In this document: positions 51,602-59,946 of the stretch, piece by piece
How the letters are laid out: every line of letters starts with the position of its first letter
Numbering within the stretch: position 1 is the stretch's first letter
Origin: Candidatus Latescibacterota bacterium
GTDB taxonomy: Bacteria > Latescibacterota > UBA2968 > GCA-2709665
Direction of reading: 5' to 3'
Length of the DNA: 64,000 nucleotides
Assembly: GCA_965237675.1 (NCBI GenBank)
Contig: OZ250150.1
Coordinates: 3,616,001 to 3,680,000, forward strand
Translations under genes and position numbers: made by a program
The notes under the pieces: model-generated
The model's database searches: none
Told to the model about the DNA's origin: nothing
The model's input: the letters and a program-made list of their open reading frames with translations, nothing else

Positions 51602-53038
51602 TCAGGTCAGCCTGGGGAAGAGCGGTTGACTCTTCCGGATCACGGGTCTTGAGAAGCTGCTCTCGATTCTCCCGGCGGTTCGTGGAAGAAAGGGTTTCAG
51701 GCTCCATGCTATGGCGTGGACCGACCCGACCCACGCCGAGAGGTGTTGTCTTAACCTCTCGGCTTTTTGTTGTTTCAGAAGTTCCCATGGGCGGGCCGCG
51801 TCGATTTCCCGGTTCAGTTGAGCGATCTGCCGCCAGATGGACCGGAGGGCCGCGGCGAAGTCGAAGCTGTCCCGGACGTCCTTCAGGTCCGGTGAAATGC
51901 GGGTGCGAGGCGTTTCCGCACGACCGTAGCCGGCCTTTTCGCAAAGGGCTTCGAGCCGGCGAACGAGGTTGCCCAGGCCGTTCGCAAGGTCCGAGGTGTA
52001 GACTTCCCGGAGCCGGGCTTCGGAGACGTCTCCGTCCCCTCCGGAGCGGACGGCGCGGAGCAGGTAGTACCGGACGGCGTCAGCGCCGTACCGCTCGATC
52101 AGCGGGAATGGATCGACGGCGTTGTCCAGCGACTTGCCGATCTTGCGGCCCTCTACGGTCAGGTGGCCATGGACGAAGATGGCCCGGGGCAACGGCAGGC
52201 CGGCCGAAAGCAGCAGGGCTGGCCAGTATACCGCGTGGAATTTGAGGATATCCTTGCCGATTACGTGGATCCTGTTGGGGCAGTTGCGCCAGTACCGTTC
52301 GAAATCTTCGAACCTGGAGCCGTAGCCCAGGCCGGTGAGGTAGTTGGTCAGGGCGTCGAACCAGACGTACATGACTTGGGTGGGATCTCCCGGCACAGGC
52401 ACCCCCCAGCCTCCCGAACGTTCCCGATTGCGGGAAATACTGAAGTCGTGCAGGCCCTGCCGGATGAATCCCAGCGCCTCGTTTCGCCGTGTTTCCGGGA
52501 GAATGCGGAGCTTTCCAGACACGATCAGGGCCTCCAGCGGCTTCTGATAGTTGGAAAGACGGAAGAAATAGTTCGTTTCTTCGACGTTCTCGGGTTCGAC
52601 ACCATGTACAGGGCACCGTCCATCCGCCAGGTCCGGTTCCAGATAGAAGTCCTCGCAGCCCACGCAATACAGACCGCGGTACTGTTTGAGGACAATATCC
52701 TCTTGCCGGCAGGCCGTCCAGAATCTGGAAGCGCCGCGGAAGTGGGCGTCGGAGGAGGAGCGGATGAAGCGGTCGGAAGCGATGTCGAGGGCCTCGACAA
52801 GGTTCAGGAAGACAGCGGCGTTCCGATCGCAGAACTGGCGGGGGGCCAGGCCTTCCCTTGCAGCGGCCTGCACGTTCTTGAACGCGTTCTCGTCGGTTCC
52901 GGTCAGGAAAAAGGTGTCGTCGCCCAGGAGCCGGCGCCACCGGGCAATCGCGTCGGCCTGTACGAGTTCCAGAGCAAAGCCCACGTGGGGGCGGGCGTTG
53001 ACGTAGGGGATGGAGGTCGATACATAGAAGGTGTTCAT
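51602..53038 (-). CDS. metG: Methionyl-tRNA synthetase, short form without C-terminal tRNA-binding domain
   Basis: PYVNARPHVGF, GTDE, CVGC/CPVH knuckle, YVWFDAL, IGKDILKFH, KIGKS (KMSKS equivalent), LANGLGNL. Confidence 0.92.
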   Translation of the reverse strand: MNTFYVSTSIPYVNARPHVGFALELVQADAIARWRRLLGDDTFFLTGTDENAFKNVQAAAREGLAPRQFCDRNAAVFLNLVEALDIASDRFIRSSSDAHFRGASRFWTACRQEDIVLKQYRGLYCVGCEDFYLEPDLADGRCPVHGVEPENVEETNYFFRLSNYQKPLEALIVSGKLRILPETRRNEALGFIRQGLHDFSISRNRERSGGWGVPVPGDPTQVMYVWFDALTNYLTGLGYGSRFEDFERYWRNCPNRIHVIGKDILKFHAVYWPALLLSAGLPLPRAIFVHGHLTVEGRKIGKSLDNAVDPFPLIERYGADAVRYYLLRAVRSGGDGDVSEARLREVYTSDLANGLGNLVRRLEALCEKAGYGRAETPRTRISPDLKDVRDSFDFAAALRSIWRQIAQLNREIDAARPWELLKQQKAERLRQHLSAWVGSVHAIAWSLKPFLPRTAGRIESSFSRPVIRKSQPLFPRLT

Positions 53039-53112
53039 GGCAAGTCCTTTCCATTTGCGGACTGAATAAGGATAAAGCGACGCATTTCGGCTCGGAACAG
53101 GACATGCGCATG
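53036..53112 (-). promoter_or_regulatory. Predicted RBS-sequestering hairpin of metG
   Basis: mRNA CAUGCGCAUGUCCUGUUCC (53112-53094) can form 16 pairs with GGAAAGGACUUGCCAUG (53052-53036), which holds the SD and start codon. Confidence 0.6.
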
Positions 53113-53277
53113 TAAGAGATACCGCCGGTGCTGTGAGATAAACAGTTGAACATTCGGTTTTCCCCCATAAAATTGGAGCGGTTCAGGCCTTGGGACACCG
53201 TTTCGTCAATTTGCGATCCGGACCCGTGGCGTCAGGCGCGATACGTGGCCAGAAATGAATGAGGACTGTTTTTGCAC

Positions 53278-53314
53278 AAATTAAAACCCACCGCCGATCC
53301 GTCGGCGGTGGGTT
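53278..53314 (-). terminator. Intrinsic terminator / attenuator hairpin in the metG leader
   Basis: 13-bp perfect stem AACCCACCGCCGA-CGGA-TCGGCGGTGGGTT followed by TTAATTT on the minus strand. Confidence 0.8.
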
Positions 53315-53343
53315 GGTCGATTCAGGTACAGGTGTGATTCAGT

Positions 53344-53502
53344 TCAAGTCAGGGGATGGTCCGCCGCCGAAAACCCGGTAGAAAAGGAGGCCATCATGTA
53401 CATAGATATATCGTCGACACGTGTCGACGGCGTGCCGTTGAAGGCGGGAAAAGCAGACGTGTTCGAACTCGTTGCTTTATTTGGCTTCAGATCCGGCGTC
53501 AT
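53344..53502 (-). CDS. Putative Met-rich leader peptide (52 aa)
   Basis: AGGAG RBS; MTPDLKPNKATSSNTSAFPAFNGTPSTRVDDISMYMMASFSTGFSAADHPLT; lies between a consensus promoter and a terminator. Confidence 0.6.
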   Translation of the reverse strand: MTPDLKPNKATSSNTSAFPAFNGTPSTRVDDISMYMMASFSTGFSAADHPLT

Positions 53503-53530
53503 GGCAGGCTCCTGTCTTTGCGTTCGCGGA

Positions 53531-53559
53531 AATATAGAATGCTGGGTGGGAAATGTCAA
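53531..53559 (-). promoter_or_regulatory. Sigma70 promoter driving the metG leader
   Basis: TTGACA (53559-53554)-N17-TATATT (53536-53531). Confidence 0.75.
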
Positions 53560-53837
53560 GTCTGCCGATCGCATTTCGGTTTTTCGGCTGGCGCCGCGAT
53601 CGCACAGGTAACCGTTCAATGTCCGTGAATATCGTAGCTATTTGGCATGAGTGTGTTCCCGGCCCATCCGGGTTGCGCCCGTCGCGGGATTTTCATCTTC
53701 CCCTTGTCCTTTTGGCGGGATGGGCTTACATTGTCGCAGATAGGAGACCTGGTGGTCGGCTTGCCAGTTGTCTGGTTTTAAGCCTGTACCAGGTGTGCAT
53801 CGACTTTCGCGAACATTACAAGAATAGGGACTCGGTC

Positions 53838-54887
53838 GTGCTTTACTGGTTGGGGGAGCGTTTCGCGGATATTTACGGGCCTTTTCGGCTGTTAACGTCC
53901 TATCTGTTTCTGGCCGTTCTCGGCACGGCGCTGGCAGGACTGTTTACCTGGCTGCTACTTCCAAGATTGTGGATGCGGTTGCCCAAAGACCGGGGCCGCG
54001 CGTTTGCCGTCGAGAACGAGCAAAGCCACGGCAAGCCCGTTGGCGCGGGCGTTATTTTCATCCCTATCTATCTGGTCGTGTGTTTGCTGATTCTTCCGCC
54101 GGGATCCCAGTACTGGCAGATTCTCGGCTGTGTTTTCCTCGCGATGCTGGCCGGTTTTCTGGACGATCGAAGCCCGGGAGGGTGGGGCGAGTATCGCGTG
54201 GGGGCCATCGACCTGGGCATTTCGTTACTGGGCGCGATGGTCATTTGCCAGTTGGCGTCCGTCGACGTCTGGTTGCCGCTGATGAAGACGCCGGTATCGG
54301 TTCCGCCGTGGATTTTTGTGCCCGGAGCCGCATTGTTGATCTGGGTTTCAATTAATGCCACCAACTGTACCGACGGCGTGGACGGGCTGTCGGGCAGCCT
54401 GAGTGTCATGGCTTTTGTCTATCTGGGCACGATTCTATACGGGATTGTGGGGCACCGGGACATTGCCAGGTATCTACTCGTGCCGCATTATCCGGATGGT
54501 GCGGTCTGGGCGCTGTTTGCATTTACAATGGCCGGATGTCTGGCCGGTTATCTGTGGTACAACGCCTATCCGAGCGCCGTACTGATGGGAGACGCCGGTT
54601 CCCGGCCAATGGGCCTCTTGCTCGGGACGCTGGTTCTGGCCTGCGGCAATCCGTTTCTGATCGTCGTCGTTGCCGGGGTGGTTCTGGTGAATGGGGCTAC
54701 GGGGCTCCTGAAAGTGGCGTTGCTGCGGTTCTTGAAAATCGGGATCTTTAAGACGGTTCGTTATCCGCTGCACGATCATTTTCGGCACAAAAAAGGTTGG
54801 TCGAACACCCATGTGCTTGTGCGGTTTATTCTGCTTCAGGCGTTTGTGACGCCAATTCTGCTGGTTCTGCTGGTCAAGATCCGTTAA
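53838..54887 (+). CDS. mraY: Phospho-N-acetylmuramoyl-pentapeptide transferase-like protein, outside a dcw cluster
   Basis: GFLDD, NATNCTDGVDGL, LWYNAYPS.VLMGDAGS, PLHDHF..KGW; GTG start at 53838. Confidence 0.85.
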   Translation: MLYWLGERFADIYGPFRLLTSYLFLAVLGTALAGLFTWLLLPRLWMRLPKDRGRAFAVENEQSHGKPVGAGVIFIPIYLVVCLLILPPGSQYWQILGCVFLAMLAGFLDDRSPGGWGEYRVGAIDLGISLLGAMVICQLASVDVWLPLMKTPVSVPPWIFVPGAALLIWVSINATNCTDGVDGLSGSLSVMAFVYLGTILYGIVGHRDIARYLLVPHYPDGAVWALFAFTMAGCLAGYLWYNAYPSAVLMGDAGSRPMGLLLGTLVLACGNPFLIVVVAGVVLVNGATGLLKVALLRFLKIGIFKTVRYPLHDHFRHKKGWSNTHVLVRFILLQAFVTPILLVLLVKIR

Positions 54888-59870: not shown

Positions 59871-59946
59871 TGGTGACCCCGAGGGGAGTCGAACCCCCGT
59901 TTCCAGGGTGAGAACCTGGTGTCCTAGGCCACTGAACGACGGGGTC
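59871..59946 (-). tRNA. tRNA-Glu (anticodon CTC)
   Basis: GACCCCG acceptor stem, CCAGG-TTCTCAC-CCTGG anticodon arm, GGTTCGACTCC T-arm, encoded CCA. Confidence 0.96.

Follow-up and report, generated by a model that had tools for sequence, protein, structure and literature searches.

A candidate methionine-specific leader-peptide attenuator before an auxiliary methionyl-tRNA synthetase gene of Latescibacterota

Background

In the classical attenuators of the trp, his, leu, thr, ilv and pheA genes, the regulatory codons lie in segment 1 of the leader RNA, and the helices 1:2, 2:3 and 3:4 are mutually exclusive. To our knowledge, none of these attenuators is methionine-specific. In Escherichia coli pheST, the pheM leader peptide contains codons for the amino acid of the enzyme itself, and the leader carries an intrinsic terminator and an alternative antiterminator. 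Here, we analyze a stretch of 64,000 nucleotides (the window; contig OZ250150.1, positions 3,616,001 to 3,680,000) from a Candidatus Latescibacterota bacterium, in which a short upstream frame with clustered methionine (Met) codons and a terminator precede the gene for a second, auxiliary methionyl-tRNA synthetase (MetRS).

The pheST operon is treated as the model for synthetase attenuators in PMC1262725, and classical attenuators are described in general terms in the abstract of PMC1183508. As in pheST, the synthetase gene of the window stands behind a short, apparently translated frame in which codons for the cognate amino acid abound; a terminator with an alternative antiterminator comes after this frame. 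It differs from pheST in using Met rather than Phe codons, and in that the gene is an accessory paralog, whereas pheST encodes the only PheRS. In addition, the leader has 52 codons, with the cluster at codons 34-37, and is followed by a putative second, translational stage. The four-segment design is that of the classical operon attenuators, which, unlike this one, control biosynthetic operons.

A closer parallel in terms of gene content is the auxiliary, indolmycin-resistant tryptophanyl-tRNA synthetase (TrpRS) gene of Streptomyces coelicolor, which was reportedly found by Vecchione and Sello in 2010 to be under ribosome-mediated attenuation. In both cases an accessory synthetase paralog lies behind a leader attenuator, in the window a proposed one, that would read the charging of its own tRNA. 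However, the amino acid here is Met and not Trp, and antibiotic resistance is known only for the TrpRS paralog. In Streptomyces, candidate classical attenuators have also been predicted upstream of leuS and trpS (Seliverstov et al. 2005, PMC1262725); these likewise precede synthetase genes outside Proteobacteria, but contain Leu or Trp codons. Few duplicated synthetases have been characterized empirically, according to PMC4787780.

The T-box leaders of Firmicutes metS and metG and the S-adenosylmethionine (SAM) riboswitches serve the same aim, i.e., they respond to methionine status or tRNA charging. They act by direct binding of tRNA or ligand with no leader translation, and neither type matched at the MetRS paralog locus. 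In the ermC and cat genes, a translated upstream frame holds the strand that sequesters the downstream ribosome-binding site, and a stalled ribosome frees this site. The second upstream frame of the window resembles them in that the sequestering strand lies inside a putatively translated upstream frame. In ermC and cat, however, the ribosome stalls on an antibiotic and the frames end before the regulated start, whereas in the frame described here, which crosses the start out of frame, the likely site of a stall would be a Met codon. ermC is mentioned as a translational leader in PMC2965389.

For methionine operons, PMC1262725 states explicitly that a conserved RNA regulatory structure was not found. 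In the full-text literature (including the accessible parts of PMC4833913, PMC1262725, PMC2965389 and PMC13236596, with subscription journals and supplements outside the scope), we found no attenuator based on Met codons; the attenuators described there concern Trp, His, Leu, Thr, Ile/Val, Phe and a few further amino acids, methionine not being among them. The leader described here most likely represents a known mechanism with a specificity not found in the searched literature. Methionine is special in this respect, since the same enzyme charges the initiator tRNA required by the leader itself. If the proposal is correct, it would add a new amino-acid specificity to leader-peptide attenuation, place this mechanism in a little-studied, uncultured phylum, link it to duplicated synthetases and provide a natural example of transcriptional and translational attenuation in series. 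It would also offer a rule for annotation: Met-rich short frames before MetRS genes would be regulatory leaders rather than hypothetical proteins.

Results and discussion

A leader with clustered Met codons

We consider it probable, at about three chances in four, that the sequence upstream of the MetRS paralog is a leader-peptide transcription attenuator, which reads the supply of charged elongator Met-tRNA and controls this second, auxiliary gene. The parts of the leader are as follows.

53531..53559, minus strand, promoter of the leader transcript (-35 hexamer 53559-53554, 17-base spacer, -10 hexamer 53536-53531)
53509..53513, minus strand, leader ribosome-binding site, read from the sequence
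53344..53502, minus strand, leader reading frame of 52 codons plus stop
53392..53403, minus strand, putative regulatory Met cluster, Met-Tyr-Met-Met, with Met at codons 34, 36 and 37 of the leader
53386..53395, minus strand, segment 1, the 5' strand of the predicted anti-antiterminator helix, overlapping the last two Met codons (RNAalifold consensus)
53355..53369, minus strand, segment 2, with alternative partners, segment 1 (via 53365-53355) or the terminator 5' arm (via 53369-53361)
53299..53314, minus strand, segment 3, the terminator 5' arm (53314-53302) plus loop bases, the predicted target of the antiterminator
53285..53297, minus strand, segment 4, the terminator 3' arm and stem partner of the 5' arm
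53275..53284, minus strand, T-rich tail of the terminator, read from the sequence
51602..53038, minus strand, gene of the auxiliary MetRS paralog, 478 residues (TIGR00398, PF09334)

A preliminary description of this DNA had proposed the promoter, the ribosome-binding site, the 52-codon frame, the Met cluster and the terminator, and each of these elements is confirmed on the minus strand where it had been placed. The Met codons (53403-53401, 53397-53395 and 53394-53392) are, as had been stated, the only internal ones of the frame. The promoter matches the consensus at 11 of 12 positions and is the sole minus-strand promoter-like site that a consensus scan detected in 52500-54500; on both strands together, this interval contains 3 such sites versus 0.9 expected from shuffles. 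The terminator stem (53314-53285) consists of 13 pairs, 9 of them G-C, with a 4-base loop, and is followed by the T-rich tail. Counted from the stem, the MetRS paralog starts (53038) 246 bases further on, in agreement with the earlier estimate of approximately 240. The same description named the gene metG. Its product is indeed a MetRS, but not the housekeeping enzyme: it is a short second paralog in a genome that also encodes a canonical MetRS of 634 residues.

No Rfam family matched 52800-54200 at E values up to 10, except for one chance match to a long non-coding RNA. In particular, the T-box covariance model (RF00230) had no match in this interval at E up to 10, the SAM riboswitch models had none there or, at gathering scores, in the whole window, and RF00162 (SAM-I) had none anywhere in the organism's own genome. 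Neither the leader peptide nor the peptide of the second upstream frame had a Pfam or NCBIfam match. Sequence searches of the own genome for a second copy of the leader returned only the locus itself and short chance matches, so there is no sign, by this approach, of a wider regulon.

Conservation in the genus

Homologous loci were collected from the genus (14 loci, including the window), and their upstream regions could be aligned over 291 columns with 81% mean identity. The promoter, the ribosome-binding site, the frame with the Met cluster, the antiterminator strand and the terminator are kept in all 14. Little or no variation is seen in the two hexamer regions of the promoter, in the start codon, in the terminator stem and in the GG of the ribosome-binding site, and a purine-rich, GG-containing site lies 6-8 bases 5' of the start codon in 14 of 14 leaders. 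Counted from the first ATG, the frames have 50 to 57 codons. No locus departs from the first two Met codons, and a single one lacks the third; thus, three Met occur within four codons in 13 loci and two Met in the remaining one. The stop codon, TGA or TAA, occupies the same alignment column in 13 loci, the exception being L015, in which one base is deleted near the end of the frame.

The leader N-terminus follows another pattern. Approximately 30 N-terminal codons (window 53404-53502) are wholly different between the window and L020, on the one hand, and L006-L017, on the other (alignment A3, columns 60-158). The distance from the start codon to the Met cluster is constant in the genus in spite of this divergent N-terminal half.

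In 11 of the 14 loci the leader stop is located 79 to 88 bases before the gene start, and the terminator tail runs into the ribosome-binding site of the gene. Because the terminator abuts this site, transcription through it is the only visible route of expression in these genomes. The arrangement bears on the idea that the frame and its terminator are a separate small gene, for a small protein or a small RNA, with the MetRS paralog transcribed from another promoter and the Met codons incidental. The 246 bases between terminator and gene in the window would offer space for a promoter, and 52 residues suffice for a small protein; nevertheless, we regard this explanation as very unlikely, considering the 11 loci above, the lack of a minus-strand promoter-like site in the spacer of the window by consensus scan and the complete divergence of the N-terminal half of the window's peptide from that of most of the genus. 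In addition, frame and terminator travel with this type of MetRS across phyla (see below), and a sequence search of the genome gave no second copy. A promoter of the gene's own below the terminator, which the preliminary description had raised as a point against attenuation, thus finds no room in 11 of 14 loci, although the longer spacer of the window could still hide one.

The stretch from the leader stop to the terminator is also strongly conserved in the genus. This conservation could be explained if the terminator were regulated not by a ribosome on the leader but by a small ligand or an RNA-binding protein, for example, the synthetase itself, and there is precedent among synthetase genes for autoregulation through leader RNA: E. 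coli thrS is an example, in which the control acts on translation. Still, no known RNA family matches the region, the alternative helices are positioned relative to the Met codons as a ribosome-dependent switch requires, and Met enrichment recurs in leaders of unrelated sequence, which makes such regulation highly improbable.

Mutually exclusive helices

We assessed each helix by the percentage of paired cells, by controls in which the partner strand was slid and by 500 shuffles for the covariation score. RNAalifold, applied to the 14 leaders, predicted the terminator together with a hairpin joining 53395-53386 (the last two Met codons and those that follow) with 53365-53355; in the prediction that omitted the 3' arm of the terminator, 53369-53361 paired with 53308-53299. 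The three helices are mutually exclusive, and the Met codons lie in the strand that pairs with the antiterminator strand. On sequence grounds, this predicted helix of Met codons and antiterminator strand completes the classical four-segment design.

In the genus, helix 1:2 is paired in 93.7% of cells (65.1% at most in slid controls), helix 2:3 in 94.4% (77.8%) and helix 3:4, the terminator, in 100% (58.8%). The covariation scores were reached by 99, 149 and 36 of the 500 shuffles, respectively. The lack of within-genus covariation is due to the fact that the helices hardly vary, and the evidence at this level is conservation. At the center of segment 2, six bases are identical in all 14 loci even though they lie on two four-fold degenerate Ala codons; since third positions could vary freely here, their invariance points to a constraint at the RNA level.

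For pairing strength, we determined the best duplex that the sequence following the Met codons can form with the 5' arm and loop of the terminator, and compared it with 1000 dinucleotide shuffles. The window duplex had an energy of -20.6 kcal/mol versus a shuffle mean of -12.6, and 7 of 1000 shuffles were as good. The pairing of 53378-53361 with 53311-53294 proposed in the preliminary description was borne out by a hand count on the sequence (15 of 18 pairs, 3 of them G-U). In the window, the predicted energy is -12.7 kcal/mol for helix 1:2, -17.0 for 2:3 and -25.8 for the terminator. Folded without constraint, the leader adopts 1:2 together with the terminator, and omitting the 3' arm allows 2:3 to form.

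From these features we infer the stalling steps and the methionine response of the leader. Transcription would begin at the 53559-53531 promoter, and a ribosome would start on the 52-codon leader. When Met-tRNA is plentiful, the ribosome would cross the Met codons and segment 2 and proceed to the stop codon; it would be moving over segment 2 while segment 3 emerges, the 3:4 terminator would form and most transcripts would end near 53285. When Met-tRNA is scarce, the ribosome would stall on codons 34 to 37 and cover segment 1. Segment 2, thus free, would pair with the emerging terminator 5' arm, the terminator would not form and RNA polymerase would read on. With codon 37 in the A site, the stalled ribosome would extend about 13 to 15 bases past this codon, which fits with a free core of segment 2. 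With no ribosome on the leader, 1:2 would pair and the terminator would form.

Conserved peptide sequence suggests a further possibility, in which the RNA switch is the same but the signal differs: the leader would be an arrest peptide that senses, within the ribosome tunnel, free methionine, SAM or a different ligand. Amino-acid conservation across lineages is seen in the C-terminal half of the 52-residue leader peptide and in the core of the peptide encoded by the second upstream frame, the two peptides share a core resembling Ile-Ser/Gly-x-Met-x-Met-Ser, and the leader is much longer than classical leaders. The conserved stretches are, however, also strands of RNA helices, which is sufficient to explain their conservation. 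Moreover, the loss of one base in L015 puts the last leader codons into a different frame but leaves the RNA strand intact, and the leaders of other phyla share Met clusters but no peptide motif. We therefore consider an arrest peptide very unlikely.

Compensating changes in sister clades

More distant orthologs, with proteins 59 to 66% identical, were found at three loci (L021, L022 and L023). Their leaders encode a different peptide, with 2 to 4 Met codons at alternating positions, and carry a terminator of different sequence, and a MAFFT alignment places them in register with the genus leaders (17 sequences in total). Over these 17 sequences, all cells of the terminator are paired, 5 of its 13 pairs are changed on both sides (14 cells) and none of 500 shuffles reaches its covariation score. 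The antiterminator is paired in 82.4% of cells and has 2 pairs in which both bases differ; its covariation score is reached by 13 of 500 shuffles. In duplex tests on their own strands, 8 (L021), 19 (L022) and 11 (L023) of 1000 shuffles were as good as the native sequence.

The preliminary description had suggested that homologous leaders be examined for Met clusters and covarying stems. The clusters and the pairing are kept, whereas significant covariation is lacking within the genus and appears in the comparison across clades. We searched 81 genomes for further orthologs near the sister clade and found no new ones.

Leaders before related MetRS genes

The nearest relatives of the MetRS paralog were surveyed at 80 species-genome loci and 80 metagenome loci; approximately 500 further pattern matches exist. 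An upstream frame was scored as Met-rich if it had at least three Met in 8 codons. Such frames occurred at 10 of the 80 species-genome loci, and 7 of these 10 were outside Latescibacterota: Chloroflexota (4), Myxococcota (Myxococcales; 1), Rokubacteria (1) and Alphaproteobacteria (1). All seven show a promoter-like site, and in all of them a terminator hairpin follows the frame; they share only the Met clusters, with no common peptide motif. In candidate-phyla-radiation genomes, no Met-rich frame was found within the 450 bases immediately upstream of the related MetRS genes. At the metagenome loci, which were scored for frames, 12 of 80 had a Met-rich frame, mostly with one shared leader peptide pattern. 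As a control on the same loci, Met-rich frames were counted in upstream sense stretches (8 of 68), in antisense stretches (1 of 68) and in other tiles (19 of 816).

A FastTree tree of 169 MetRS rows groups the Latescibacterota paralogs in a clade of 21 rows, whose sister clade of 17 rows contains the leader-bearing genes of Chloroflexota. Both clades are contained in a 39-row clade (local support 99), in which 24 rows have a leader, 13 have none and 2 could not be judged, and a second group of leader-bearing genes falls into a 16-row clade. The leader label is clustered on this tree (15 changes versus 27.2 in shuffles, with 0 of 500 as low), although the label is crude, as L016, L021, L040 and L050 were scored negative but have leaders by eye, and the tree was made with no bootstrap. 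Where tested, the leader-linked MetRS was one of two MetRS homologs in its genome (5 of 5 genomes). The distribution suggests that gene and leader were inherited and transferred together.

Evidence weighing against attenuation

Several observations weigh against the attenuator proposed here, and some concern the pairing itself. Within the genus, covariation of helices 1:2, 2:3 and 3:4 is not significant (14 loci). The cross-clade signal comes from three kindred sequences and may represent only one or two events. In addition, the antiterminator is a three-base repeat, such that with the partner slid by three columns 77.3% of cells are still paired, compared with 82.4% in register. Of the 7 leaders from other phyla, 6 gave no significant result in the duplex test (177, 290, 975, 321, 207 and 215 of 1000 shuffles as good); L064 was the only one under 50 (23 of 1000), and the terminator arms of five leaders were set by eye for this test.

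Other observations concern the switch. The antiterminator is short, with 7 to 9 G-C pairs, and at -17.0 kcal/mol it is weaker than the terminator at -25.8. A simple ribosome mask at the stop codon leaves the 2:3 pairing in the fold, and a ribosome on this codon would cover only the last few bases of segment 2. Since most of the segment is then exposed, termination in plenty must depend on timing. The folds with a ribosome mask suggested in the preliminary description did not switch: the mask alone left the minimum-energy structure unchanged, the terminator being the most stable element in masked folds. It follows that the switch, if real, is kinetic, and classical attenuator switches are likewise kinetic.

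The leader is also unusually long, and the conservation of its C-terminal half as peptide could indicate a peptide-specific role. Its own initiation requires charged initiator tRNA, which is a product of the same enzymes. The 246-base spacer of the window could hide a promoter missed by the consensus scan. Finally, no transcript ends or expression response were seen. Nevertheless, most of the comparative tests support the earlier suggestion of a ribosome-mediated attenuator, with three amendments: the regulated gene is a paralog, an anti-antiterminator helix is present and a second upstream frame follows the terminator.

A possible translational stage

Between the terminator and the MetRS gene, the window contains a second upstream frame, with Tyr-Met-Arg-Met at 53114-53103, which continues out of frame across the MetRS start. 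Its features are the following.

53036..53153, minus strand, second upstream frame (start codon 53153-53151, ribosome-binding site 53166-53161, Met codons 53111-53109 and 53105-53103)
53093..53112, minus strand, 5' strand of the sequestering helix, beginning at the conserved Met codon of the second frame (RNAalifold)
53036..53053, minus strand, 3' strand of the sequestering helix, comprising the ribosome-binding site and start codon (53038-53036) of the MetRS paralog

The frame is found in 9 sequences from at least four lineages (the window, L010, L020, L018, L019, L021, L126, L023 and L128), and in L018 and L019 it stands without the first leader. A ribosome-binding site precedes it in 9 of 9, and both internal insertions or deletions are multiples of three. 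Its end varies widely between genomes, giving lengths of 56 to 357 codons. Unguided RNAalifold pairs 53112-53093 with 53053-53036, i.e., with the ribosome-binding site and start codon of the MetRS gene. This sequestering helix has 16 pairs, and 91.7% of cells are paired versus at most 40.3% in slid controls. Compensating changes are present here as in the terminator: both bases differ in 5 of the 16 pairs (9 cells; none of 500 shuffles has as many), and the covariation score is reached by 1 of 500. The helix is the minimum-energy fold of the window sequence, and its energy is not unusual (z -0.57).

These observations suggest a second stage of control, at the level of translation. In read-through RNA, a ribosome held at the Met codon of the second frame would open the helix over the MetRS ribosome-binding site and start codon, and this opening would act as a translational check of the same methionine signal. 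We put it at about even odds that the second frame is a translational attenuator opened by a ribosome slowed at the Met codon. Only one of its Met codons is conserved in 9 of 9 sequences, and the same codon lies in the strand that pairs with the start codon; because the pairing itself requires this codon, the helix is more secure than Met sensing at this stage.

Most of the genus does not have the spacer that holds the second frame, i.e., it has lost it. In one public run (X3), there are contigs that skip 228 or 222 bases here and connect 53054 with 53283, which indicates that relatives without the second frame, and with the same layout as most of the genus, are present in that sample. In the sister clade, L125 (631-774), and also L021 and L126, contain between the terminator and the second frame a remnant that resembles the C-terminal end of phosphoribosyl-pyrophosphate synthetase. 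In L125 it corresponds to PF14572 (E 5.5e-6; 26.9 bits versus a cut-off of 27), and the presence of this remnant implies that the spacer was rebuilt by insertion.

The auxiliary MetRS

The MetRS paralog matches TIGR00398 with 394.9 bits (cut-off 336) and PF09334, and its best solved relative is 2csx (E 4.8e-108). It has no C-terminal tRNA-binding appendix. The canonical MetRS of the same genome is a 634-residue open frame with the usual signatures and is 39% identical to the paralog; we found no Met-rich frame within 500 bases upstream of it. In the paralog, the first class I signature is His-Val-Gly-Phe (usually His-x-Gly-His) and the second is Lys-Ile-Gly-Lys-Ser, at residues 17-21 and 299-303 (window about 52990-52976 and 52144-52130). 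Phe in place of the second His is common across this MetRS lineage, including many candidate-phyla-radiation and small archaeal genomes, and so it is not the mark of a dead enzyme.

Canonical-type MetRS is present in all 61 genomes of the class that were searched. Within the genus, the short paralog was detected in 13 of 14 other genomes, and the rest of the family has it in 3 of 7. Two further families gave 2 of 3 and 0 of 5 genomes, respectively, and a sister family (31 genomes) yielded two partial or interrupted matches at 50% identity. Because the paralog is patchy while a canonical-type enzyme occurs in every genome searched, it is an accessory, plausibly inducible copy.

These considerations lead to a broader, tentative proposal, to which we would give clearly less than even odds. 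One RNA may act as a two-stage Met sensor, first by a transcription and then by a translational attenuator, and gate an inducible, horizontally acquired auxiliary MetRS. The leader may belong to a cross-phylum class of Met-tRNA-sensing leaders that travels with one MetRS lineage, and the paralog may be a back-up enzyme, of high affinity or insensitive to an inhibitor, made only when the housekeeping MetRS cannot keep tRNA-Met charged.

Additional observations

The locus closest to the window by leader sequence, L020 (genome G012), has its paralog in two pieces, residues 1-135 and 137-478, in separate frames. This split may reflect a frameshift, a pseudogene or an assembly error.

Three public RNA runs contain 4-5% of the words, and the sequences that could be placed are contigs of relatives. 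One 333-base contig from an RNA library covers 53306-53475 and continues past the terminator side with L020-like letters; DNA is possible in the library, and the contigs carry no information on ends, strand or level. Another contig from a public run (4785 bases) covers the 5' end of the gene up to 53060.

A scan of the whole window with Rfam at gathering scores detected one tRNA (59874-59946) and nothing relevant to the leader. Outside the window, the own genome has one T-box-like match (G000:C1:3070072-3070377), with 77.7 bits versus a cut-off of 93 and an E value of 8.8e-17.

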